A stretch of DNA of 12,403 nt, taken from assembly GCA_029856365.1 (NCBI GenBank), contig JAHQWW010000113.1, forward strand, positions 1 to 12,403, in the 5' to 3' direction. Shown piece by piece: positions 1 through 12,403 of this stretch. The notes below the pieces were generated by a model. The model saw only the letters and a program-made list of their open reading frames with translations. It did not search any database and was not told the origin of the DNA. The translations under genes and the position numbers were made by a program. The DNA is from Candidatus Hodarchaeota archaeon. GTDB lineage: Archaea; Asgardarchaeota; Heimdallarchaeia; Hodarchaeales; Hodarchaeaceae. Positions within the stretch are counted from its first letter, which is position 1. Each line of letters opens with the position of its first letter.

Positions 1-147
1 TATTTCATTTATGACTTCTCCAGAACCAGGAGCATGAAATTTGACTGTGTTCATTCGATCAATGATAGTATCTGGTTCGATATAAATCTGTTGACTTAAA
101 TATTCCTTGCATACTAGTTTTCTGGGCATTTCAGGAGGATCACTCAT
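1..147 (-). CDS. Hypothetical protein, N-terminal part only (runs off the left edge)
   Basis: Manual translation from the ATG at 147 stays open to position 1: MSDPPEMPRKLVCKEYLSQQIYIEPDTIIDRMNTVKFHAPGSGEVINEI. An in-frame TGA lies just upstream. It is co-directional with, and 41 bp downstream of, the 189..728 gene. Confidence 0.55.
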   Translation of the reverse strand, partial: MSDPPEMPRKLVCKEYLSQQIYIEPDTIIDRMNTVKFHAPGSGEVINEI

Positions 148-188
148 CGTCAGTCACTTTTATCCAATAAAATGACATAATTTGTAGA

Positions 189-728
189 TTAATCAAAAAA
201 CTCATCTAATCTGATTGTTTTCCTATATTGTTTGATTTTTTCTTCTACTACTGCAGCAGCAATTTCTTCTCGTTGTTTTAAGGATTTATGAGGAGTTGCT
301 TCACGTAGTTTCAGTAATTCTTCGTCATACCATCTAGAGATCTGTTTTTCTTCAGGATGAGGTTCTACATATTGTTTCTGTTTTTGGAGATACTTTTTAA
401 GGCGAGAAAGGACATATTTTTCAGTCAGCTCCTGACGAATCTTCAATGTCTCGTGAGGATGAGCTAATCTGATCTGATTGTCGGCCTCTTGCCACCATCT
501 AGCTAAAATCTTAGGACTTGGAGGCACTGACTGCTTCCACTTATGTTTTTTCAAGAATTCTTCCTTTTTTTTCAAGGAATCCTGTGGATATGCCTCCCTA
601 ATTTCTTTCTCTGCTTTAATCCACATTTGAGCAAATCTGTTAGGGTCCAGCTTAACACGATTTTTGTTCCGATTAGCCAACTTTTGTGTTGGATCCAACT
701 CCGACTTTTCTGTATTATTATTTGTCAT
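189..728 (-). CDS. Hypothetical basic helical protein with three internal ~30-aa repeats and a C-terminal PIP-box-like motif
   Basis: 179-aa K/E/R-rich ORF. Repeats at aa 28-58, 71-101 and 126-156 share (F/L/I)(A/S)(Q/R)(M/W)(W/Y)x6(I/L)RxAxPxx(S/T)LKx(K/R)xE. The protein ends RKTIRLDEFFD. Confidence 0.8.
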   Translation of the reverse strand: MTNNNTEKSELDPTQKLANRNKNRVKLDPNRFAQMWIKAEKEIREAYPQDSLKKKEEFLKKHKWKQSVPPSPKILARWWQEADNQIRLAHPHETLKIRQELTEKYVLSRLKKYLQKQKQYVEPHPEEKQISRWYDEELLKLREATPHKSLKQREEIAAAVVEEKIKQYRKTIRLDEFFD

Positions 729-778
729 GATTATCTCATCAGAATCAAACTGATGTTCATAAAACCTTGGATCTGATC

Positions 779-802
779 ATTCCTAAAAATCTTTTTAGGA
801 AT
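779..802. promoter_or_regulatory. Perfect 11-bp inverted repeat, candidate operator or hairpin
   Basis: ATTCCTAAAAA-TC-TTTTTAGGAAT, about 50 bp upstream of the ATG at 728. Confidence 0.45.
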
Positions 803-953
803 TCGATGATTTTTTTTATCATAATTTAGGGCTGGAAGACTAATCCTAATCAGCATTAGTACATCAATGCTTTAATGTAAAAACTTGGTTCATCATTCCA
901 TTAATAAAGGATACTTCGATAATTGGTAATGAATACAATATTTACATAATTGT

Positions 954-2120
954 TTAAGAAAATTCTTTGATAATCCACTCAAAACTATATTTGAAATCCC
1001 ACCTTTGCCAAAAATGAGCTAAAATTACAAAAAATAGACTGTACAGAGATGCTAGTGACATTAACACTGATTCAGAAGGGATAAGTGAAGGATCAAAGAC
1101 TCCAACAACAGGATGAATCAAATAAACAGTTAGAGAAATCTTACTGACAATGATTATAGGATAGAATAGTCTAATGGTGGATTTGCGAGGGATTTTTTGG
1201 TAGATATCAAGTAACAAAACTAGGATTACAAAAATAAAGCCAATAAGCCCAATTGAGATGAATACGTGAGAAAAAGATGACGTATATCCTATCCCGTGTG
1301 AGACAAATCTTTCTTCTAATGAATACAATAGCCCAATGACTAGGAAAATAAGGTTAACACTTAGTAATATAACCGATTTTTCAGTAACACGAATTTTATG
1401 GATGTTACTTAAATCGAGAAAGGAAGCAGTAATGCCGCCAGCTAACGGAAATGAAAGCCATGGGATCACACCACTCGTTGAAATATCAAGAAGAGCGTAT
1501 TCAATAATCCTTTTGATTTCAGATTGTACTGGAAAAGCCACTGGTTGTTTCATCATATAATCGTGGAATAAAAAGAAAAAGGCGATAATCAATGCGAAAT
1601 TTAATAGTAGAATGACAGTAAGACATTGCTGTGAACTCCAATAACCATTGATTTTCTCTTCAATCCAACATGCGAGTTCCCACATAAGAAGGAGGAAAAT
1701 TGTAGAAAAAGCAAAAAGATGAAATAGGTGCCAATTAAAAATATAATTGAATGATTTTTCTGGTTCTCCTCTAGAAAATGCCATTATTATCATTGTAATA
1801 ACTAAGAAAAAAAGAAAAATTATGCTTCGTTTTATTGCATGAGATCTAATCTTGTTCCGATTTAAGATATCTCCTCCTCGTTTCAGAAAAGAATTAACTT
1901 GATTGAACCCATAGAGGAAAAGAAAACATGGGAAAACCATCAGGCCCAGGATCATAATAATTGTTACGAGAAGTCCGCTTTCCTCATAATTAACAGCCAT
2001 TGAATTATCCCACCACCCAATAAAATGCCCAAAAATCATGGGGAAGACCGAGAATCCTTTCAATAGATCGACAGTTATGAAATAGAATCGATTCTGTTCA
2101 TTGTTTGCATTTTCATTCAA
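954..2120 (-). CDS. Polytopic membrane acyltransferase-like protein (DUF1624 / heparan-alpha-glucosaminide N-acetyltransferase-like, acyltransferase-3 superfamily)
   Basis: N-terminal RFYFITVDLLKGFSVFPMIFGH matches the family pattern R..lD.lRG....Mi..H. Also FLFLYG, an IPWL motif and C-terminal SKISLTVYLIH (family G..SL..Yl.H). About 10 hydrophobic segments; TTG start. Confidence 0.7.
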   Translation of the reverse strand: MNENANNEQNRFYFITVDLLKGFSVFPMIFGHFIGWWDNSMAVNYEESGLLVTIIMILGLMVFPCFLFLYGFNQVNSFLKRGGDILNRNKIRSHAIKRSIIFLFFLVITMIIMAFSRGEPEKSFNYIFNWHLFHLFAFSTIFLLLMWELACWIEEKINGYWSSQQCLTVILLLNFALIIAFFFLFHDYMMKQPVAFPVQSEIKRIIEYALLDISTSGVIPWLSFPLAGGITASFLDLSNIHKIRVTEKSVILLSVNLIFLVIGLLYSLEERFVSHGIGYTSSFSHVFISIGLIGFIFVILVLLLDIYQKIPRKSTIRLFYPIIIVSKISLTVYLIHPVVGVFDPSLIPSESVLMSLASLYSLFFVILAHFWQRWDFKYSFEWIIKEFS

Positions 2121-2660
2121 GTTTTCATCTATCCAATTAAGAAAATAGAATGCATTATGAGAGGCTAGAACTTATAATAAATAATCCCTATCTAAAATAT
2201 TAATTTGTAAAGGAAATTTGGAACTGGTTAGGTATTGTATCGAAAGATTCTATCGCTTTATATTTCGTCCAATAATCATGGTAAATATTATTTGATATAT
2301 TTTACGACAACCTATACTATCTTTTCAACCTAAAGGGAAATGTTTAAACGTTAGAGGAAAGAATGTCGTTCGGAGTGAAAATCCATGTGGGATCACGAAA
2401 TTTGTTTGCAACTCCTTTTTTACTAACCACTGGATACTAGACTCCAAAGTCGTACATTTAATTGGTTTTTTTTACTGGAAGAATCATTTTTATGAGTTTT
2501 TGAAAACATTTACTGAATTTTTGGTAGGTGACTTCAGGATGGATCGTAAAATTTGGTAAAAAGAACAAGAAAGAGAATGAGAAACAAAATGAACAGAATT
2601 GGACAAAACATACACTTTTCGAGTTAGTCCAAATATTACCAAATGTGAATTTCCGAAATC

Positions 2661-2666
2661 GGAGGA
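2661..2666 (+). promoter_or_regulatory. Ribosome-binding site of ileS
   Basis: GGAGGA 9 nt upstream of the GTG start at 2676. Confidence 0.55.
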
Positions 2667-2675
2667 AGAGACGCG

Positions 2676-5636
2676 GTGAATGATTCTCTCTTCACTCCTG
2701 TGACTGCGAAACTTGAATGGGCAGCAGTCGAAAAGACCACACTCAAATTTTGGGAAGACAAGAGGATTTTTCAAAAGTTGAAAACTAAGCTTCAAAGCTC
2801 TAACCTACAATTTAGCTTCATTGATGGCCCCATCACGGCAAATAACCCTATGGGAGTACACACAGCTCGCGGTCGTACCTTGAAAGATATTTTTCAACGT
2901 TATTGGGCCATGCGGGGTTATAATCAACGGTTTCAAAATGGATTTGACACACAAGGTCTCTGGGTCGAAGTTGAAGTCGAAAGAGCCCTTGGCTTAAATT
3001 CAAAACAAGATATTATGAAAATGGGTATAGAGGCTTTTATCAATCAATGTAAAGCTCGCATAAATAAATATTCAAAGATTATAACGCAACAATCAAAAAA
3101 ACTTGGTCAACAGATGGATTGGGACAACAGTTATTATACTCACACTGATCAGAATATTGAGCACATCTGGTTTTTCCTGAAGATCTGTCATGAAAAAAAT
3201 TGGCTCTATCGTTCTCGTCTTGTGATGCCATGGTGTCCACGCTGTAGTACCAGTCTTTCTGCTCATGAAATGGCGGACTCATATAGATTAGTGAATCATC
3301 CTTCGGTGTTCTTACAGCTCCCCGTCTTGGGAATTCCCAATCGTTATTTCTTGGTCTGGACAACAACTCCTTGGACGCTAACAGCAAATACTGCTTTAGC
3401 AGTACACCCAGACTTAACTTATGTGCTTGTTAAAAAGAATGATAAGGAATTTTATCTTGCAGAGGATTCGATTGAAGTTTTTGGCCCTGAATTTTCACTA
3501 TTAGACTCTATTAAAGGTTTTGATTTATTAGACTTGAATTACAAAGCTCCTTTCACAGACCTTCCACTCCAAAAAGGGATTAAGCATAAACTTATTCCTT
3601 GGAAAGAAGTATCTTCCGATGAGGGAACAGGTATAGTTCATATCGCCCCTGGGTGTGGTGCAGAAGATTTTGAATTAGGAGAACAATATGAACTAGATGT
3701 CATTGCTCCCATCAATGATAGGGGAGAACTAGTTGAAGGTTTGAGGCAACTAAGCGGGTTAAATACCCAAGAAGCAGCATCACCTATTTTTAAACGCCTT
3801 ACTGAGAAAGGATTTTTATTTAAGATAGAAACAGTTGAACATCGATATCCCGTCTGTTGGCGCTGTAAAACCGAGCTCGTTTTTAAAATAGAAACCGAGT
3901 GGTTCATATCATGTGATGAGATACGAACCCTACTTCAACAAGCCAATAATGATGTTCACTGGGTACCAACACATGCTGGAAAACGAATGCACGATTGGTT
4001 GGAAAATATGAGTGATTGGTGCATCTCTAGGAAGCGTTATTGGGGGCTGCCATTACCTTTCTATCTCTGCAGTTGCGGACAAGTGACAGTGGTTGGAAGT
4101 CTTCAGGAATTAAAAGAATTGGCAGAAGATCCGCATCAAGTAGAAGAATTAAGCGAATTACATCGTCCATGGATTGATAAAGTGAAAATCTCATGTCCAA
4201 GTTGTGGGAAATTAGTTGAACGTATTCCTGAAGTAGGTGATTGTTGGTTAGATGCTGGGATAGTCCCATTTTCTACTCTCAATTATCATAAAAATCGAAA
4301 AAAATGGGAAAAGTGGTTTCCCGCTGATATGGTCTGTGAAATGATAGAACAGGTTAGACTTTGGTTTTATTCACAACTCTTTATGTCGGTTGCATTAGAA
4401 GGACGTGCGCCCTTCAAGACAGTTGTAGTGTACGAGGAAGTTAGAGATGAAAATGGTGCACCTATGCACAAATCTTCTGGTAATGCAATTAGCTTTGATC
4501 ACGCTCTCTCAGAAATGGGCGCCGATATTATGAGATGGAATTATGCAACACAAAAATCAGACGCATTTCTACGTTTTGGATTCACCATTGCCAATGAAAT
4601 TCAACGTAAGTTTGTACCTTTCTGGAATGCGGTTAGATTCTTTATAAACTTCGCTGCTTTGGATGTTAATGAAGCTTCTCAATTATCTCAGCCTTCTACT
4701 AATGTGTTTGATCAATGGATTCTAGCTAGACTGAATAATTTAATTAATAATTATCATGAGAGCTTAACAAATTGGGACTGCAAAAAGCCCACTCTTCTAC
4801 TTGAAGAATTCTTTAATGATCTTACTAATTGGTATATCCGAAGTTCACGAAGGAGATTTTGGAAGGAAAAAGATCCGTCTGACGACAAAGATGCAGCTTA
4901 TTCAACATTATATCAAGTTTTGATAAATGCAAGCTATCTATTAGCTCCTTTCATGCCATTCTTATCTGAACACATCTTTCAACTTCTCCGACATCCATTT
5001 AATAAACGGTTACCAGAAAGTGTTCATCTGTGTTCACTTCCAAAGAAAAAAGATATTTCTTCCTCACACGAAAAAGTGTTAGAATCTTTTCAAAAATATC
5101 AGAATATTGTCGAACTAGGTCGATCACTGAGGAATAAAGCCCAAATCAAACTTCGCCAGCCGCTCTCATTGGCTATCATCGTAGGAGATCCACCATTCAT
5201 ATCTAGTAAGTACGCAACACAGTTGTTTGAATACCTTAGGCAAGAATTAAATGTTAAAGAGCTTAAATATGTCCAAGATTTAGCTAGGGAGGTAATAAAT
5301 CAAAAATATCTCTTTCAAGCATCTAAAGAGTATGATTTAGCTTTACTTCTCGTAACTGAGATGACTCCAATATTAAAACGGGAAGGTATGGCACGAGAGA
5401 TAGTTAGGGTAATACAACGTTTGAGGAAAGAAGCTAATCTTAACATAGACACGAGGATCAATATTAAATATGAAACTGATTCGTTAGAAATTCTTGAAAG
5501 TATAAAATCGTATAGAGAATATATGAAAGCGGAAACATTAGCCTGTGAAATATGTTTGGAATCTTTAGAAGATAAAGATTTCTTTTCAATCAATGGATTC
5601 GATTTGAATCTTACACTTGAAGTGGTGTTCAATTAG
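2676..5636 (+). CDS. ileS: Isoleucine--tRNA ligase, type 2 (IleRS2, GxHH-like subgroup)
   Basis: DGPITANNPMGVHT (HIGH-equivalent), GFDTQGLWVE, CP1 editing motifs WTTTPWTL and GTGIVHIAPGCGAEDF, DWCISRKRYWG, ELHRPWID, PMHKS (KMSKS-equivalent), NWYIRSSRRRFW and type-2 C-terminal EGMAREIVRVIQRLRKEA. Zn-knuckle-like CPRC, CWRC, CSC and CPSC motifs. Confidence 0.97.
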   Translation: MNDSLFTPVTAKLEWAAVEKTTLKFWEDKRIFQKLKTKLQSSNLQFSFIDGPITANNPMGVHTARGRTLKDIFQRYWAMRGYNQRFQNGFDTQGLWVEVEVERALGLNSKQDIMKMGIEAFINQCKARINKYSKIITQQSKKLGQQMDWDNSYYTHTDQNIEHIWFFLKICHEKNWLYRSRLVMPWCPRCSTSLSAHEMADSYRLVNHPSVFLQLPVLGIPNRYFLVWTTTPWTLTANTALAVHPDLTYVLVKKNDKEFYLAEDSIEVFGPEFSLLDSIKGFDLLDLNYKAPFTDLPLQKGIKHKLIPWKEVSSDEGTGIVHIAPGCGAEDFELGEQYELDVIAPINDRGELVEGLRQLSGLNTQEAASPIFKRLTEKGFLFKIETVEHRYPVCWRCKTELVFKIETEWFISCDEIRTLLQQANNDVHWVPTHAGKRMHDWLENMSDWCISRKRYWGLPLPFYLCSCGQVTVVGSLQELKELAEDPHQVEELSELHRPWIDKVKISCPSCGKLVERIPEVGDCWLDAGIVPFSTLNYHKNRKKWEKWFPADMVCEMIEQVRLWFYSQLFMSVALEGRAPFKTVVVYEEVRDENGAPMHKSSGNAISFDHALSEMGADIMRWNYATQKSDAFLRFGFTIANEIQRKFVPFWNAVRFFINFAALDVNEASQLSQPSTNVFDQWILARLNNLINNYHESLTNWDCKKPTLLLEEFFNDLTNWYIRSSRRRFWKEKDPSDDKDAAYSTLYQVLINASYLLAPFMPFLSEHIFQLLRHPFNKRLPESVHLCSLPKKKDISSSHEKVLESFQKYQNIVELGRSLRNKAQIKLRQPLSLAIIVGDPPFISSKYATQLFEYLRQELNVKELKYVQDLAREVINQKYLFQASKEYDLALLLVTEMTPILKREGMAREIVRVIQRLRKEANLNIDTRINIKYETDSLEILESIKSYREYMKAETLACEICLESLEDKDFFSINGFDLNLTLEVVFN

Positions 5637-5791
5637 AATTCATTATTAATTCAGTTCAATCTATTATTCTCCTTTCTGATTATCTCCCACTTTGTTTTTA
5701 GATGCAAGATTTTCGAAAACATACGAAATAATTAGCTTGGTGAGTAATTCTTAAACTAATACATTAACCTCAAAGAATAGCTAATTCAAAA

Positions 5792-5799
5792 TATATAAA
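5792..5799 (+). promoter_or_regulatory. Candidate archaeal TATA box
   Basis: TATATAAA preceded by A-rich CAAAA, about 90 bp upstream of the 5884/5893 start. The AT-rich context limits specificity. Confidence 0.3.
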
Positions 5800-5883
5800 A
5801 ACAAAGTAAAATGAGAAATCTTATCTATTAATCCTTGTCTCAAGAAAAATCTTTTTCTCCTATACTCATTATTTCAATGAAAG

Positions 5884-7263
5884 TTGAGTAGAATGACACC
5901 AGAGATTGAAAATCTATGCCGGAAACATGGCGCTATACTTGTCACCGATGACCCTGACTTTCTAAACTGTTGCGGCCGATGTGAGGTTGCTGCTTCTCTA
6001 GGTTCAGTGAATCTTTGTCCGCAACGGGTTCATACGTCAAATAGTTGCTGCCCCTCATGTAACATCTTCTTGGAACATGGATCAGAAGCAATGTTGGCTC
6101 ATTGGAAAGACCAAGCTCAATTCGTGGCTGGTTTTCAAATTGTAGTGCCACTCAGAATCACTGAAGAAGTTATTCGATCAGCATTCAGACTACAGAAGGT
6201 TCCAGTCAATCAGTTAGGAATTTTATACGAATGGAAGAACTCACGGACTTTAGATATTGTGTTTGAGAGGCATATCGACTGGGTAATGACAATCAAACAT
6301 ACCTATTGGCCTTTAGATCCAAACATTGAAGAGTCATTCTTACTGGATCCTCTCATTTATGGCCTTGCTGGTTTTCCTGCCCGTGCAGGAGCCTCTCTTT
6401 TTTCTCAGCTTCAATCATTATTTGAGGATCTTAAAACATGGTTGACAGAAAACTATCAGATTGATCCTCTGGAATTATTCGATACTGATCATCCTTCAAA
6501 GAATACGTACACGAATTTTCCCTCGTATTATGCCTCATACTACCTCCGCTTTGATAATGCTGACAATCTAACCATTAATATCATGGCTCCAGATTATAAG
6601 AAATCAGAAGAACCTGAGGTGTGTTTAGTGCATATGGGAGATGATCAGATTCCAGTTGTTTTATTTCAAAAGATTAATGAAGCTCTAGTTATGCAAAAGG
6701 GATTAGTGAATGCTTGGCTTACGATTGAACCTGCATTGCAAAAAATGCTGGAAGAATTGTCTGATATCACAGCAGAGATGCGTACTATTACAAGCTCAAC
6801 CGTTACTCAATTAAGTGAATTCTTGGATCGCACACAGGATATCCAAGCCCAGTTTCTCAAGCTTAAACCTGCTATTTCTAAAATGCAGGGACATCTAAGC
6901 CCAATTGTCCCTTTGTTGTCAGAACCATTGATTCAGAGATTATTTCCAAATTTCAATCTCAATCTCATGAATTCATGGATAGACTTCGCGAAATCAGTTG
7001 AGCGGTCTGTCGAAGGAGCTACTTCTTATATACAGGGTAAGATGAATCTATTATCTCTTGAACAGGAAAAACGGACTACAAAAAGGCTTAACTTTTTAAC
7101 TGCGTTATTCGGATGCCTCTCTGGATTAAATCTTTTGGTTGCTCTGTTAGCATGGTCTCAACCAACACCTGATGAAGGAACATTCTTTGCAACTGTTGTT
7201 TTAATAATTGCGTTAATCGCTCTAACTCTTGTCTTTGTCGGTAGAGTTATATCCCGAGAGTAA
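5884..7263 (+). CDS. Hypothetical membrane protein: Cys-rich N-terminal domain plus CorA-like helical stalk and two C-terminal TM helices (no GMN motif)
   Basis: 459 aa, starting at TTG 5884 or ATG 5893. N-terminus has CRKH, CCGRC, C and CCPSC. Long amphipathic helices span roughly aa 260-400, followed by LSLEQEKRTTKRLNFLTALFG and two hydrophobic helices at the extreme C-terminus. Confidence 0.6.
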   Translation: MSRMTPEIENLCRKHGAILVTDDPDFLNCCGRCEVAASLGSVNLCPQRVHTSNSCCPSCNIFLEHGSEAMLAHWKDQAQFVAGFQIVVPLRITEEVIRSAFRLQKVPVNQLGILYEWKNSRTLDIVFERHIDWVMTIKHTYWPLDPNIEESFLLDPLIYGLAGFPARAGASLFSQLQSLFEDLKTWLTENYQIDPLELFDTDHPSKNTYTNFPSYYASYYLRFDNADNLTINIMAPDYKKSEEPEVCLVHMGDDQIPVVLFQKINEALVMQKGLVNAWLTIEPALQKMLEELSDITAEMRTITSSTVTQLSEFLDRTQDIQAQFLKLKPAISKMQGHLSPIVPLLSEPLIQRLFPNFNLNLMNSWIDFAKSVERSVEGATSYIQGKMNLLSLEQEKRTTKRLNFLTALFGCLSGLNLLVALLAWSQPTPDEGTFFATVVLIIALIALTLVFVGRVISRE

Positions 7264-7267
7264 ATAA

Positions 7268-7344
7268 TTTTAAAAAAGCTTTTTGTAGTTGAATCTAGTG
7301 TAATCAATATTATAAGCTAATATTTAGAAAAAAAAGAGGAGGGG
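7268..7344. terminator. Probable bidirectional terminator region between convergent genes
   Basis: Palindrome AAAAAGCTTTTT (7273-7284) gives T-tracts on both strands. A minus-strand pyrimidine run CCCCTCCTCTTTTTTTT immediately follows the RDD stop. Confidence 0.45.
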
Positions 7345-7347
7345 TAT

Positions 7348-7662
7348 CTATCGGTCCTTAATAACAATAGTTCCACCGATATAGTCACCGAAACGCCGAC
7401 GGCCAGGAGTAATCAATAATAAACATGGACATATACCACAACAGTTACGAAGACAAGAGTCGACGATGGTTGCGGGTTGACCGGTTCCGAATTTCACGAC
7501 ACGAAGGCCCATCATCCCCTTGCCTATGCTACGACCGTCTCTAATCCCATCTTTTATACAGAAATAGAATGGAATGCAACTTAATATGTCGTCGATTATG
7601 TATGCAACACACCGATCTGCACAAGGAGCTTGTCTCTGAATTAATGTTTGTTGTCTTGACAT
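7348..7662 (-). CDS. RDD family protein, minimal Cys-rich variant
   Basis: RDD hallmarks R-CVAYII-D, GRSIGKGMMGLRVV, LRN and RRFGDYIGGTIVI. Likely start is ATG 7662 after GGAGATAAGGTGAAA (the track uses GTG 7668). 9 Cys in 104 aa. Confidence 0.85.
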   Translation of the reverse strand: MSRQQTLIQRQAPCADRCVAYIIDDILSCIPFYFCIKDGIRDGRSIGKGMMGLRVVKFGTGQPATIVDSCLRNCCGICPCLLLITPGRRRFGDYIGGTIVIKDR

Positions 7663-7838
7663 TTTCACCTTATCTCCAGCTCACTTCAAATGGAGAATAT
7701 CATAATACAACTATAATTTCACTAAAAAAGATTGTGGTAGTGCAAACCTCTTTGGAATTGATTCACCAAGAATTCATGAAAAATCCATTTAATTAATGAT
7801 GTATTGATATAAAAAGGAGTATTACAACTGATTTGAAC

Positions 7839-8429
7839 TCATTCTTCAAGTTTATCGGGATGTAAGGCAAATGGATCATGAATACCCCCATGAACAGCTT
7901 GAGCCAGAAAAATCTTTTCTCGATCTGCATAGATTTGAAATCCAGTACAATACGGCATATTATTAAATTCTTTACAATGGTTACAAACATCATTATTACT
8001 CTTCGCTCGCTGTTGATTAAGATAAAAATAACCAGGTATAAAATTCAATAAGATCCACCCTTTGATTAGCCAGTTCGGAGTGAAAACAAATTGGACAAAA
8101 GCCAATGAAAATGAAACTCCTAATAAAAACCGAGCAACATCTTTAATCTTACGATTTTCAATCCAAAGTGCTGTTACAATAGTAGGGAAAATTAATGAAT
8201 ATAAAACAAGACCCACTTGAATTTCAGTTAAACCATGCCACCATCCCAAGAGATTTCCCACAACTATAATGAAAAAAGAGAATATCATACCTGAATATTG
8301 CATCACACACCCCCGACAAACCTTGGTTTCCCTAAAAACATAGACATGATCTTTAAATTGATCACAAAAAGGATGATGAGAAATTCGATACGGGCCAAGT
8401 ATTCTACGATCGAGATTACGAGTGGACAT
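7839..8429 (-). CDS. Putative metal-binding membrane protein, DUF2085-like
   Basis: N-terminal SHHPFC..H..VCRGC..YSG resembles the DUF2085 pattern CH...vCaRC.G.y.G. About 4 TM segments, then a C-terminal CNHC...C cluster. Confidence 0.55.
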   Translation of the reverse strand: MSTRNLDRRILGPYRISHHPFCDQFKDHVYVFRETKVCRGCVMQYSGMIFSFFIIVVGNLLGWWHGLTEIQVGLVLYSLIFPTIVTALWIENRKIKDVARFLLGVSFSLAFVQFVFTPNWLIKGWILLNFIPGYFYLNQQRAKSNNDVCNHCKEFNNMPYCTGFQIYADREKIFLAQAVHGGIHDPFALHPDKLEE

Positions 8430-8476
8430 GATTCAATGACCTAATATCTAAAAATACTAAATTATTATTCTTACCA

Positions 8477-10000
8477 TTATTTACGATTTAGTAGCTGTTT
8501 TAAGAATCTGAGGTGTTGCTTTTCGAGCTCCTTTTTATTGCTTTCATCAAGAACAGAAGCTAAAAATGGAGCAGAATATTTCTGAAAAGCAATTTTTCTA
8601 TTATATTTTTTTTTCCAGTAGTTAAAACCTTCTTCTGTTTCCCCTTTTAAATGATAAAGTAAAGCCACTTCATAGTGGTATTGGTTTTCTTGCATCTTAT
8701 CTTTTGATTTTCTCACTACCGGGAGGATAAATTCACGTGATACTGTGATTGCGCCTTGATAATCTTTTGTTGCCACAAGTTCATTTCGATAATTGCTTCC
8801 TAGTGTGATCAGTTCATCCCAGTTTTTTCTTTTCTTGAAATAATCACTTGCAATGATTAAATACTCCCATGCAGGTTTTAAAGCCCCCATCTTCAGGTGC
8901 ATATAGCCTAAATTTCCTTGTGTAGAAGCAATACTGTCAGGATCTTGAGGTTTCATGCTAAAAAGGACCTCTAACAATTGAGTGTAAATCTTGCGAGCTT
9001 CCTCAAATTCTTCTTTATTAATTGCAATCCTTGCCAAATTATCTAGAGAGTATCCTATACTTAATGAATTGCGTGTAGGTAGTTCTAGTATTCTTTCAAA
9101 TGTTTTCTTGGCGATATCTGCTTGGTTTTGATTCAGATAGCACTCACCAAGCTCGAGAAGGATTCCATCTGTTGGGTTTTCTATCTGGTTGTAGGTGTCA
9201 ATTGCTTTATCAATCGATCCTGCTGCTTTAGCAGAACGTGCTTGTGTTGTAAGAGCTATATTTTGACCTAGGACATTTTGTAGTTTTTCATATAGAGACG
9301 CAGCTTTAGAGCTGTTCTTCTGAGCACTAATATATTCTCTTCTAAGAAAATAAGATTCAGCTAGATTATGGTAGGTAGCAGCAAGATTGGTTATATCTTG
9401 GATTTCTTTGAATACATCTCGTGCTTTTTCAAAATGAGACATCGCAAGATCAACCTCTCCATTCTGGTAATACATACTTCCAATATTTAAATGCGAGCTG
9501 CCGATTGCCTCTTGTTTTCCTTCCAGTTGAGCTATTTCAAGAGCTTTAAAATGGAATTTCTGAGCTTCTTTAAAACGTTCGAGAAAAATATAGACGTTTC
9601 CAAGATTATGATATATTTTCGATAGTCCTTCATTGTTTTTTGCTAGCTTAAATGCTTTCTCTGCATTTTGATAATGAACTAATGCGTCAGAATACCGTTG
9701 GTGCAAGCGATAAATCTTACCCAAGATGTTTTCAGAATCACCTACCATTGAATGATTACCAAGTTTCTGAAACTTTGGTAAGAGTCTTTCAACAATCTTT
9801 TTGGCGTTTTTAGAATCCCGAATAGAATAATATGCTTCTGCCAGCTGGTATTCCAAATGAAGTTTCTTATTTTGTGATTCAACTTTGGGGATTTCTTCTT
9901 CTAGCATATTAATTAGATCATGAAACCTTCCTTGACGGGTAAGTATTTTAATACGTTCATTATTTATTGTCATTTTATTCGATAGGGGATTTATTCCCAT
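8477..10000 (-). CDS. Tetratricopeptide repeat protein
   Basis: Repeated ~40-aa units (ENILGKIY..ALVHYQNA, YHNLGNVY..AQKFHFKA, HLNIGSMY..AMSHFEKA, YHNLAESY, DNLARIA, QGNLGYMH). No catalytic domain is apparent. Confidence 0.9.
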   Translation of the reverse strand: MGINPLSNKMTINNERIKILTRQGRFHDLINMLEEEIPKVESQNKKLHLEYQLAEAYYSIRDSKNAKKIVERLLPKFQKLGNHSMVGDSENILGKIYRLHQRYSDALVHYQNAEKAFKLAKNNEGLSKIYHNLGNVYIFLERFKEAQKFHFKALEIAQLEGKQEAIGSSHLNIGSMYYQNGEVDLAMSHFEKARDVFKEIQDITNLAATYHNLAESYFLRREYISAQKNSSKAASLYEKLQNVLGQNIALTTQARSAKAAGSIDKAIDTYNQIENPTDGILLELGECYLNQNQADIAKKTFERILELPTRNSLSIGYSLDNLARIAINKEEFEEARKIYTQLLEVLFSMKPQDPDSIASTQGNLGYMHLKMGALKPAWEYLIIASDYFKKRKNWDELITLGSNYRNELVATKDYQGAITVSREFILPVVRKSKDKMQENQYHYEVALLYHLKGETEEGFNYWKKKYNRKIAFQKYSAPFLASVLDESNKKELEKQHLRFLKQLLNRK

Positions 10001-10044
10001 CTTTGAAAAACATTCTGGGAAATTAATAATTTCTCACTGATTGC

Positions 10045-10857
10045 TTATAATCGCTGAAGTAAAACAAGACGCATAATTCCCCAAGGATTGTAGTAACCCT
10101 GAGATTCAAGCTGGTTTTCAAGTTCCCTCAACATTTTCTTCTGAATCTCGGTTAAGGCTTTATTACTATCATCAGGGGGATTTTTACTATCCAATTGTTG
10201 TTGTAAATAACCTTGAGCGTACATTTCAACTGCTTTGAAACCTACTTCACGAGACCACTGACAATTAGGTTTGAAAGAATCATGAAAAACTAAATCATAT
10301 TCAAGATTCTGTTGAGAGAGAATATTTTCAAAAGACTCTCTTGAGAAGTTATCCAAAAGCGCAAGGAATCCATGATGTGAAACTGTTCTCAGGAGTTCAG
10401 ATACAACAGCTACTAAGCTTTCTTTCCCGCGAGTGATGATAATATCCTGTAATCCGAGGAAACACGACACGCAATCAAATTTCATTGATATTAAAGGCAA
10501 CCGTAATGCATCAGCTGAAATGAGGTGAGCTTTTACTTCACCCTGAGACAGCAAAGAAGCGATCCTATTGTGAGGGGGATCAAAATCAAGATTCAGTCCA
10601 ATCAATTCAGCTTGTGGAAAACGCCAACCGAGTTCAACTAAAAATGTTCCATACCCGCAGGCTACATCCAATATAGTAAGATTACGGTGGGGATCTAGAT
10701 GTTCAACTAAGAGTGATGTTGCCCAACGTGCAGTACCCCCCCAACCGATATCAAATCCATCGATAATGCGATCATTCTCAGGAAGACCTTGTGTAAACCA
10801 AGCTCTAAGTTTATTTTCCTTCTGGACGATATTTTCTTCATCAGAGGATATTCTCAT
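10045..10857 (-). CDS. Class I SAM-dependent methyltransferase
   Basis: Motif I ILDVACGYG, followed by LIGLNL, ADALRLPL and FDCVSCFLGL. Confidence 0.9.
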   Translation of the reverse strand: MRISSDEENIVQKENKLRAWFTQGLPENDRIIDGFDIGWGGTARWATSLLVEHLDPHRNLTILDVACGYGTFLVELGWRFPQAELIGLNLDFDPPHNRIASLLSQGEVKAHLISADALRLPLISMKFDCVSCFLGLQDIIITRGKESLVAVVSELLRTVSHHGFLALLDNFSRESFENILSQQNLEYDLVFHDSFKPNCQWSREVGFKAVEMYAQGYLQQQLDSKNPPDDSNKALTEIQKKMLRELENQLESQGYYNPWGIMRLVLLQRL

Positions 10858-10883
10858 TGAATATCGAAATCCAAATACTTGTC

Positions 10884-10932
10884 TTGATATTCTCTTTCTT
10901 TAGAAAAGAAAGAAATTTGATATTCTCTTTCT
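10884..10932. repeat. 16-bp perfect direct repeat (33-bp period) with an intervening hairpin
   Basis: TTGATATTCTCTTTCT at 10884-10899 and 10917-10932. TCTTTCTTT (10893-10901) pairs with AAAGAAAGA (10905-10913). Confidence 0.7.
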
Positions 10933-10935
10933 CTC

Positions 10936-11970
10936 CTATTTTACTAAGCTAACTGCATTTCTGACAGCTGCTTCAGCATCTTTCATGATTCTTTCCATAA
11001 TATCAGAAACACTTTCAATGCTGTCAATCAAACCAATACTTTGGCCAAGGAGAACAGCCCCATCGTTGATGTTGCCTTCATAGGCTAATTCGTAAGCTCT
11101 GATTGTCTTGGCTATTTCGTCAACATCAAAGGTGGCCTCTTGAGCCAGTTTCTCTTCTTTACTAGTAATAGGCTTGTGTTCCCTTGCATATTCGTTTTTC
11201 CATAATCTGATGGGACCGAAGACTCCTGTTGCCATAATGGTATCTTGAGCTTTCGCCGGTGGGACAACATTCTTGTAAGTGTCATGAAATTCACTTTCTT
11301 TTGAAGCAATGAATCTTGATCCCATAGCAACAGCTCCAGCTCCAAGTGATAACGCAGCAGCTAATCCTTCTCCTGTAGCAAATCCTCCACAGGCAACCAT
11401 AGGTACCTCTGGGAATTTTTGATGCACCTGTTGAAGAACTACTAGAGTGCTAACCTTCTCATACGATTGATGTCCACCTCCTTCACCACCAGTGACCACT
11501 AGTCCGTCAACACCTGCTGAAACACATTTTTCAGCTAACCACAAAGCAGGAGCAACATGAAAATGTTTGATCTCTGAATTCTCTTTTAATTTTTGATATG
11601 GTGGAGCATTTGGTAAAATCTTGGCTGAGCCTGCGGATGTCAATGCATATACACACTGATCCCTGATTTTCTGATTCTCCATGATAAACTTTGGGATTTC
11701 CCAACAGAGCATTTCTGCATTTGGCTCCATCCGGGATGTCCTGATATTGAAACCGAAGGGCTTATCGGTATATTCTACAACAGTTTTCATATTTTTTTTC
11801 ATTTCTTCAACTGGATCTGCGTCTGATAAGCCAACATGTGAGATTACACCTAAACCTCCTGCTTCAGACACTGCTATAGTCAAATCTGTGGTGTAGAAAG
11901 GACCCATGGGTGCTGCTATTATAGGGTGTTTAATTCCCAACATTTTCGTAATATTTGTTTCAATTGTCAT
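10936..11970 (-). CDS. Nitronate monooxygenase / FabK-like FMN-dependent oxidoreductase
   Basis: ITKMLGIKHPIIAAPM, AVSEAGGLG, KPFGFN, catalytic GGEGGGH and FMN-binding ACGGFATGEGLAAALSLGAGAVAMGSRF, plus GQSIGLI. Likely start is ATG 11970 (the track uses 11991). Confidence 0.92.
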   Translation of the reverse strand: MTIETNITKMLGIKHPIIAAPMGPFYTTDLTIAVSEAGGLGVISHVGLSDADPVEEMKKNMKTVVEYTDKPFGFNIRTSRMEPNAEMLCWEIPKFIMENQKIRDQCVYALTSAGSAKILPNAPPYQKLKENSEIKHFHVAPALWLAEKCVSAGVDGLVVTGGEGGGHQSYEKVSTLVVLQQVHQKFPEVPMVACGGFATGEGLAAALSLGAGAVAMGSRFIASKESEFHDTYKNVVPPAKAQDTIMATGVFGPIRLWKNEYAREHKPITSKEEKLAQEATFDVDEIAKTIRAYELAYEGNINDGAVLLGQSIGLIDSIESVSDIMERIMKDAEAAVRNAVSLVK

Positions 11971-12200
11971 AATTCTTCCCTTAATTATCATTTTTCGATT
12001 AATATAGGTATGATGCTTAAGAAATTTCAGCTATTATTAGTATTATGCTTAATAACGTCATTAAATAGTTAAAATGTATTTATATAGAATTTCTTTGGGA
12101 GTAAGAAGATTTTTTCTCGGGAATGGATTCTCCTTCATTCTTATCAAAAATAAGTTGGAGGTAAATCCTGTAGGAAAACAAGATGAGGAAAAAGGATAAC

Positions 12201-12403
12201 TTACTGATCAAGAATGACTACTGTTCCTGCAGCTTGATCACCAATACGTCGGCCATCTTGATCCATGAGAGCAACTAGGTAGCAACAGCATCCGTCAAGA
12301 CAACCAGGACAGCAATTACGAATGAAAGACTGCCCCATCGTAGCGGGCATACCTGTTTGAAAGTCAACAACCCGCATCCCCATAAGCCCCTTGCCAATGG
12401 ATT
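12201..12403 (-). CDS. RDD family protein, Cys-rich paralog; 5' part lies outside the window
   Basis: The frame stays open to the window edge, giving SIGKGLMGMRVVDFQTGMPATMGQSFIRNCCPGCLDGCCCYLVALMDQDGRRIGDQAAGTVVILDQ, which aligns to 7348..7662. The ATG at 12383 is therefore internal. Confidence 0.85.
   Translation of the reverse strand, partial: SIGKGLMGMRVVDFQTGMPATMGQSFIRNCCPGCLDGCCCYLVALMDQDGRRIGDQAAGTVVILDQ

Follow-up and report, generated by a model that had tools for sequence, protein, structure and literature searches.

How did an Asgard archaeon come to hold an isoleucyl-tRNA synthetase (IleRS) with a single His in its class I signature, and what might such an enzyme be for? The signature, HxGH, is among the most conserved motifs in biology. 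The question arises in a 12,403-nt stretch of DNA from Candidatus Hodarchaeota archaeon (assembly GCA_029856365.1, contig JAHQWW010000113.1, positions 1 to 12,403; hereafter the window), where the longest open reading frame (ORF; positions 2676–5636, + strand, GTG start, 986 aa) encodes an IleRS with the signature G-V-H-T at residues 60–63 (2853–2864, codons GGA GTA CAC ACA; translation from residue 51: GPITANNPMGVHTARGRTLKD). G60 and H62 show the swap of positions 1 and 3 that is known from the G/AXHH subgroup of type-2 enzymes (IleRS2), while Thr (T63) replaces the His that this subgroup has at position 4. We found that the gene is a second ileS, of bacterial type and probably horizontally acquired, and we consider it fairly probable that it encodes a working enzyme, derived from bacteria and vertically inherited since, which serves as an accessory isoenzyme that is less inhibitor-sensitive or otherwise condition-specific.

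Two genes in the window's assembly (4.24 Mb in 204 contigs, 83.6% complete, 4.2% contamination) matched the ileS model above its cut-off, the window gene and a gene on contig C172. The original prediction, made from the letters of the window, had suggested a second-copy IleRS, and the search for another ileS in the genome bore this out: the C172 gene (~1,096 aa, 908.9 bits) carries canonical HMGH, GWDCHGLP and KMSKS motifs, and its product is 34% identical to the window protein. Canonical Asgard IleRS is also type 2, with Priestia megaterium IleRS2 (PmIleRS2) as its best match in the Protein Data Bank (PDB). In a closed relative (CP070695.1, a 4.94-Mb chromosome; G009) both ileS copies lie on one molecule, 1.1 Mb apart, which rules out bin contamination as the source of the second copy. 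Of 40 relatives, almost all had a canonical-type copy (H-x-G-H, mostly GWDCHGLP, and KMSKS where the pattern matched), and 10 of 22 same-genus genomes, the window's own genome counted, had a GxHH-type second copy. An eleventh same-genus genome (CP070760.1; locus L060, 3023141–3036169) holds only the 5' part of a GVHT gene, before a scaffold gap; we considered whether this gene, from the 'closed' chromosome of Heimdallarchaeota bin272, is a pseudogene and rejected the idea, as the sequence is interrupted by a 100-N scaffold gap after residue 345 and carries no mutation. Second copies with GVHH, GMHH or GLHH and xMHRS also occur in three other Heimdallarchaeia families. Dual IleRS is widespread in Heimdallarchaeia, which is evidence that many of these archaea keep two IleRS genes of different ancestry. 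The second copies of these other families (L045–L051; genomes G024–G027, G031, G033 and G037) are mostly ~1070–1080 aa long, and those at L045–L051 have an AMHRS or PMHRS loop where the pattern matched.

The window protein scored 722.8 bits over its full length against the TIGR00392 ileS equivalog (cut-off 621.4), fell far under the cut-offs of the ValRS, LeuRS and MetRS models, and matched tRNA-synt_1, Anticodon_1 and DUF5915 in Pfam. It is a type-2 enzyme, with a C-terminal PF19302 domain (residues 880–983, E 4.8e-20) and phmmer scores of 577–586 bits to IleRS2 structures (PmIleRS2, T. thermophilus) vs. 251–315 bits to IleRS1 structures. The best solved relative was P. megaterium IleRS2 (8c8w), and in the phmmer alignments GVHT falls exactly on the GVHH of this engineered mutant and on the signature position of 8c9d. 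Homologues of 985–990 aa span 100% of the query, and the nearest ones (54–91% identity) come from metagenome-assembled genomes (MAGs) annotated as Hodarchaeales, Heimdallarchaeota or Promethearchaeota. Scores against the MupA and MupB models were 613 and 585 bits, below cut-offs of 1900, and the window enzyme is therefore not a MupA/MupB orthologue. With bacterial IleRS2 of the G/AXHH group (D. radiodurans, ALHH; S. griseus; the engineered GVHH forms of the P. megaterium and T. thermophilus enzymes, 8c8w; Brkic et al. 2023, PMC10485003) it has in common the type-2 architecture, with PF19302 and no zinc-binding C-terminus, and the swapped signature, here with Gly first and His third. Unlike the bacterial G/AXHH enzymes, it has Thr at position 4, lacks the INS subdomain and is hosted by an Asgard archaeon that has a canonical IleRS too.

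Alignments were built from 120 close homologues and from 150 representatives at 50% identity. They revealed four features common to a large bacterial clade that includes Armatimonadota, Chloroflexota, Caldisericota, Tectomicrobia and Clostridia: the lead-in GPITANNPMG, the swapped GxHH, GFDxQGLW and xMHKS. The lead-in GPITANNP of the window enzyme (2826–2849, + strand) thus follows this clade, whereas canonical enzymes read GPPTANGxP. GFDTQGLWVE (residues 89–98; 2940–2969, + strand) is the clade-typical form of GWD(C/T)HGLP and retains the amino-group-binding Asp, and PMHKS (residues 596–600; 4461–4475, + strand) is the clade-typical form of KMSKS, in which the first Lys is Pro throughout the clade and the second, catalytic Lys (K599) is kept. 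These forms, PMHKS for KMSKS and GFDTQGLW for GWDxHGLP, are clade-wide differences from the Priestia and Thermus enzymes. Retranslation of 2676–5636 returned GVHT, GFDTQGLWVE and PMHKS where the original prediction had put them, but its view of the latter two as added peculiarities of this gene does not hold, and only the change of the position-4 His to Thr sets the Hodarchaeales subclade apart within the GxHH clade. In four relatives, three bacterial MAGs and one Woesearchaeota MAG of unreported completeness, a GxHH-clade enzyme was the only IleRS-level match, which makes the motif forms seen across the clade compatible with a housekeeping role.

Maximum likelihood trees (LG+G4, quick search, support from the Shimodaira–Hasegawa-like approximate likelihood ratio test, rooted on canonical Asgard IleRS) recovered the Hodarchaeales second copies as a clade with 99–100% support within the bacterial GxHH radiation, and the remaining Heimdallarchaeia second copies joined them with moderate support (83–85). 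The second copy thus probably entered by horizontal acquisition from bacteria, as the original prediction had proposed, given its place among bacterial GxHH sequences in trees rooted on the canonical Asgard copies. GC content was 37.7% in the gene vs. 36.0% in the rest of the window; a value so near that of its surroundings points to an old acquisition followed by vertical descent. Four further loci of GVHT type keep the same flanks, and one of GVHH type keeps part of them. Within Hodarchaeales, GVHT spans the main subclade and a smaller one (P0020–22), and a subclade with GVHH and PMSKS (P0015–18) is sister to the main group. Monophyly of GVHT in Hodarchaeales was not rejected by the approximately unbiased (AU) test (p-AU 0.093), the free tree nesting the GVHH/PMSKS subclade inside. 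Thr arose once or twice in Hodarchaeales, with one reversion possible.

The Thr codon at residue 63 was ACA or ACT in seven independent assemblies, with neighbouring codons that differ synonymously. A whole Hodarchaeales subclade, comprising at least 16 clusters at 90% identity, is fixed for GVHT: residue 63 was T in 16/16 GVHT clusters, and H in 5/5 Asgard GVHH sisters, in 6/6 other Heimdallarchaeia second copies and in all bacterial relatives. When we scanned for columns conserved in the GVHT group and differing from the bacterial consensus, residue 63 was the sole one parting the GVHT clade from all His-bearing relatives. Changing CAY to ACN requires two base changes, and Asn is a plausible intermediate between His and Thr because a GVHN enzyme (P0119) exists in the bacterial clade. 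Other signature variants in that clade are GVTH, CMHH and AAHH (P0051, P0133 and P0141), and the signature appears unusually plastic in this bacterial GxHH IleRS2 lineage.

We then assessed how far the doubly altered signature extends. A pattern scan of JGI metagenomes for DNA encoding G-P-x-T-A-N-x-x-x-[G/A]-x-H-T-A-x-G-R gave at least 120 matches; among the matches listed, 119 of 120 read GPVTANK.[L/M][G/A][V/I]HTAWGR with GFDCQGLW (a few had GWD or GYD or were cut off) and one (L137) was of the Asgard type. Homologues of a full-length example (L104:5224–8280) were annotated as Actinomycetota or Gaiellaceae, and G/A/C-x-H-T occurred in 114/120 Actinomycetota-type cluster representatives, one cluster alone having 649 members. 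Together, the pattern scan and the homologue search led us to reject uniqueness of GxHT. The original prediction of a new signature variant stands in part: we found no paper on it, but the variant is common, both in the Hodarchaeales subclade and among the Actinomycetota-type clusters. Our literature search, in which subscription journals were thinly covered, returned no account of G/AxHT or of an Asgard second IleRS, G/AXHH being the only signature variant described (PMC10485003; bioRxiv 10.64898/2026.02.03.703510).

The Actinomycetota (Gaiellaceae-like) soil clade resembles the window enzyme in having a doubly non-canonical signature (GVHT, AVHT or AIHT there), in its GFDCQGLW motif and in belonging to the same wider GxHH family, but it has the lead-in GPVTANK.L rather than GPITANNPM. 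It was separate from the Asgard clade in the tree, and forcing all xxHT enzymes into one clade cost 265.7 log-likelihood units in an AU test over 38 rows (p-AU 7 × 10−36, an optimistic value since the xxHT group was named after the tree had been seen). The test rejects a single origin of all xxHT enzymes; Thr arose independently in Hodarchaeales and Actinomycetota. The window enzyme keeps the second KMSKS Lys, unlike the Actinomycetota clade (L104, L063–L182), where EMHGS stands for KMSKS and the second Lys is lost too. That clade also has a conserved Lys in its GPVTANK lead-in, beside the signature. No compensatory substitutions exclusive to the two Thr lineages were found in the alignment columns. 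At residues 69, 424, 580 and 653 (window ~2880, 3945, 4413 and 4632), the Hodarchaeales second copies, in both their Thr and His forms, have L, N, F and V, as does the Actinomycetota Thr clade, and the bacterial GVHH consensus has Y, A, Y and Y; judged from the alignment, these four residues are candidate permissive substitutions for the change from His to Thr.

Thr at signature position 4 is also found outside the GxHH family. HxGT occurred in 18 of the 150 representatives (~136 with the motif region aligned), including Micrarchaeota, Aenigmarchaeota and Thermoplasmata, in line with what had been stated earlier about HxGT in some archaeal IleRS; HxGN and HYGS were seen as well. The archaeal HxGT enzymes (DPANN, Thermoplasmata), which are ordinary IleRS in other respects, share Thr with the window enzyme, but unlike it they have His at position 1, Gly at position 3 and GFD/GYDxHGLP, and they sit on other IleRS branches.

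The 2023 finding that the GxHH swap makes IleRS2 hyper-resistant to mupirocin was unexpected (PMC10485003). Evolution has on at least two occasions taken a further step, to a signature with only one His (G/A-x-H-T), both in the accessory IleRS of Hodarchaeales, which are among the closest archaeal relatives of eukaryotes, and in very abundant soil actinobacteria. The enzymes of these two lineages provide natural test cases for the role of the fourth His in catalysis and inhibitor binding. They widen the known GxHH group modestly and do not amount to a new kind of system.

Selection on the second copy was assessed from pairwise comparisons. The ratio of non-synonymous to synonymous substitution rates (dN/dS) was 0.10–0.16 for the GVHT copy, and the canonical copies of these genome pairs gave 0.045–0.10, such that the second copy is under purifying selection that is less tight than that on the canonical copy. 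Together with the intact motifs, this makes the window gene look as if it encodes an active enzyme, in agreement with what had been predicted.

How could such an enzyme work and why would it be kept? Crystallography of GXHH IleRS2 placed the Nε2 of the position-3 His where that of the first His of HXGH sits, with a shift of helix α1 in IleRS2 making room for it, and GXHH enzymes are catalytically competent (PMC10485003). By extension, H62 of the window enzyme may do in catalysis what the first His does in HxGH, H62 and K599 of PMHKS would carry transition-state stabilisation, and the hydroxyl of T63 could stand in for the contact of the fourth-His imidazole to the adenylate or ATP. Natural HxGT and G/AxHT enzymes suggest that replacement of the fourth His by Thr is tolerated. 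In the history that we favour, an ancestor of the Heimdallarchaeia or Hodarchaeales would have taken the gene from a bacterial IleRS2 lineage in which GxHH, GFDxQGLW and xMHKS were already present, and vertical descent would have followed, the gene keeping its place in the chromosome and accompanying the canonical archaeal IleRS (HMGH/KMSKS). The fourth signature residue would have changed from His to Thr within Hodarchaeales and been fixed afterwards. Convergent fixation followed by complete conservation suggests that Thr is advantageous or epistatically locked.

As to its biological role, the second copy would be an accessory isoenzyme backing up the canonical one, either because natural inhibitors acting at the IleRS site affect it less or because it serves particular conditions. 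In IleRS2, the G/AXHH swap raises the Ki of mupirocin up to 1000-fold, to high micromolar or millimolar values in the enzymes assayed, at a kinetic cost of at most ~10-fold, and laboratory selection for mupirocin resistance in S. aureus yielded IleRS1 with the position-4 His changed to Gln (PMC10485003); inhibitor resistance of the GVHT enzyme is plausible by analogy. An inhibitor-tolerant back-up is favoured by the GxHH pedigree, by the patchy distribution of the second copy and by the parallel with bacterial IleRS pairs. Like the Hodarchaeales, Bacilli with IleRS1/IleRS2 pairs (P. megaterium) and staphylococci with plasmid-borne MupA/MupB have two IleRS genes per genome, one of which is of a more inhibitor-tolerant type, but in the present case both copies are type 2 and the locus is chromosomal and syntenic rather than on a plasmid. 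If inhibitor tolerance is indeed the role, this would be the first antibiotic tolerance of the target-duplication type in Asgard archaea. We regard as unlikely a stronger version, in which G/A-x-H-T marks a convergent single-His class of IleRS2 that arose at least twice, loss of the fourth His lowers the affinity for natural inhibitors of the ATP/adenylate site beyond the level of GxHH, and the Heimdallarchaeia copy is an inhibitor-tolerance gene.

Several results weigh against a back-up role, and against inhibitor tolerance in particular. The GxHH form was inherited from bacteria where the enzyme is housekeeping, and selection by inhibitors in the archaeon need not follow from it. The canonical Asgard IleRS is itself type 2, a comparatively mupirocin-tolerant type in the cited literature, and the need for a resistant back-up is therefore weaker. 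Whatever the second copy does, it can do without Thr, since a sister subclade keeps the position-4 His, with PMSKS. At non-synonymous sites the GVHT copy has diverged ~2.3 times as much as the canonical one. Five same-genus genomes of 91–94% completeness gave no second copy; the gene is therefore dispensable and behaves as accessory. Finally, nothing among the neighbouring genes (acyltransferase-like, TPR, methyltransferase, NMO and hypotheticals) points to resistance, to a mobile element or to a biosynthetic cluster.

Some of the same evidence would suit an isoenzyme that is purely condition-specific, which we consider possible though doubtful. Its kinetics would fit certain growth states, with no link to inhibitors, and Thr would be nearly neutral or epistatically locked, the change from His having become possible after the position-3 His took over catalysis. 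The INS subdomain (~80 residues; PmIleRS2 851–925) is absent from the window enzyme, where the 853–936 region of PmIleRS2 is represented by only ~20 residues in the phmmer alignment, while the canonical IleRS of the same genome aligns through the INS region. Impaired or lost INS is reported to raise kcat and KM for tRNA, and its loss is described as recurrent in prokaryotes (bioRxiv 10.64898/2026.02.03.703510); on this account the two copies would differ in tRNA affinity and turnover. The INS-less stretch lies at residues 869–889 (window ~5280–5345). The lack of resistance or biosynthetic genes around the locus also fits this account, as does the variation of position 4 elsewhere in IleRS (HxGT, HxGN, HYGS, GVHN). 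However, a two-base change that went to fixation separately in each of two lineages, with 100% conservation thereafter, is more than would be expected from simple neutral drift, and the absence of any inhibitor link sits poorly with the literature that ties position 4 to mupirocin binding (PMC10485003).

We regard as very unlikely that the second copy, with one signature His and with Pro and His in its KMSKS loop, has lost efficient isoleucine activation and is a non-translational paralogue or pseudo-enzyme, acting in regulation, in editing in trans, or in supplying Ile-AMP or Ile-tRNA for secondary metabolism. All three classic catalytic motifs depart from consensus, dN exceeds that of the canonical copy and the gene is dispensable in several relatives, as might be expected of such a protein. 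Yet the GFDxQGLW and xMHKS forms are those of the sole IleRS-level match in the genomes of four relatives, and GXHH enzymes are catalytically competent (PMC10485003). Moreover, lineages down to 54% identity keep the Asp of GFD, the Lys of PMHKS and the third signature His, along with the residues for editing and the domains for anticodon binding and the C-terminus, at dN/dS of 0.10–0.16. An artefact is negligible as an explanation, despite a MAG of 83.6% completeness and 4.2% contamination: recurrence of ACA/ACT in seven assemblies rejects a sequencing error at the Thr codon, as had been anticipated for ACA, and synteny of the flanks in several Hodarchaeales, the closed chromosome with both copies and the GC match reject a bacterial contaminant contig.

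The remaining motifs of the window enzyme, all on the + strand, were located by alignment to PmIleRS2, and the editing-site and zinc motifs were intact, as had been claimed from the letters. The Thr-rich motif of the CP1 editing site, WTTTPWT, lies at residues 228–234 (3357–3377), and the editing-site motif with His and Asp, GTGIVHIAPGCGAED, at residues 317–331 (3624–3668). The CP1 zinc knuckle consists of CPRC (3234–3245) and CWRC (3855–3866), a pair that aligns with CPSC/CWRC of PmIleRS2. A second Cys cluster, CSCG ... CPSC (4068–4205), aligned with Cys pairs of PmIleRS2.

The flanks that the syntenic loci have in common comprise a 179-aa protein, a 459-aa hypothetical protein, a 196-aa protein, a TPR protein, a methyltransferase and NMO. 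When same-genus genomes without a second ileS were checked for an empty site, only G001 had the 459-aa neighbour, in a different context, and none provided an informative empty site. In the window, the gene for the 459-aa protein (5884–7263, + strand) lies 248 nt downstream of the second ileS on the same strand; its product has a Cys-rich N-terminus and a hydrophobic helix at the C-terminus, with no match in Pfam or NCBIfam. The same gene adjoins the second ileS in four relatives, at 82–92% identity.

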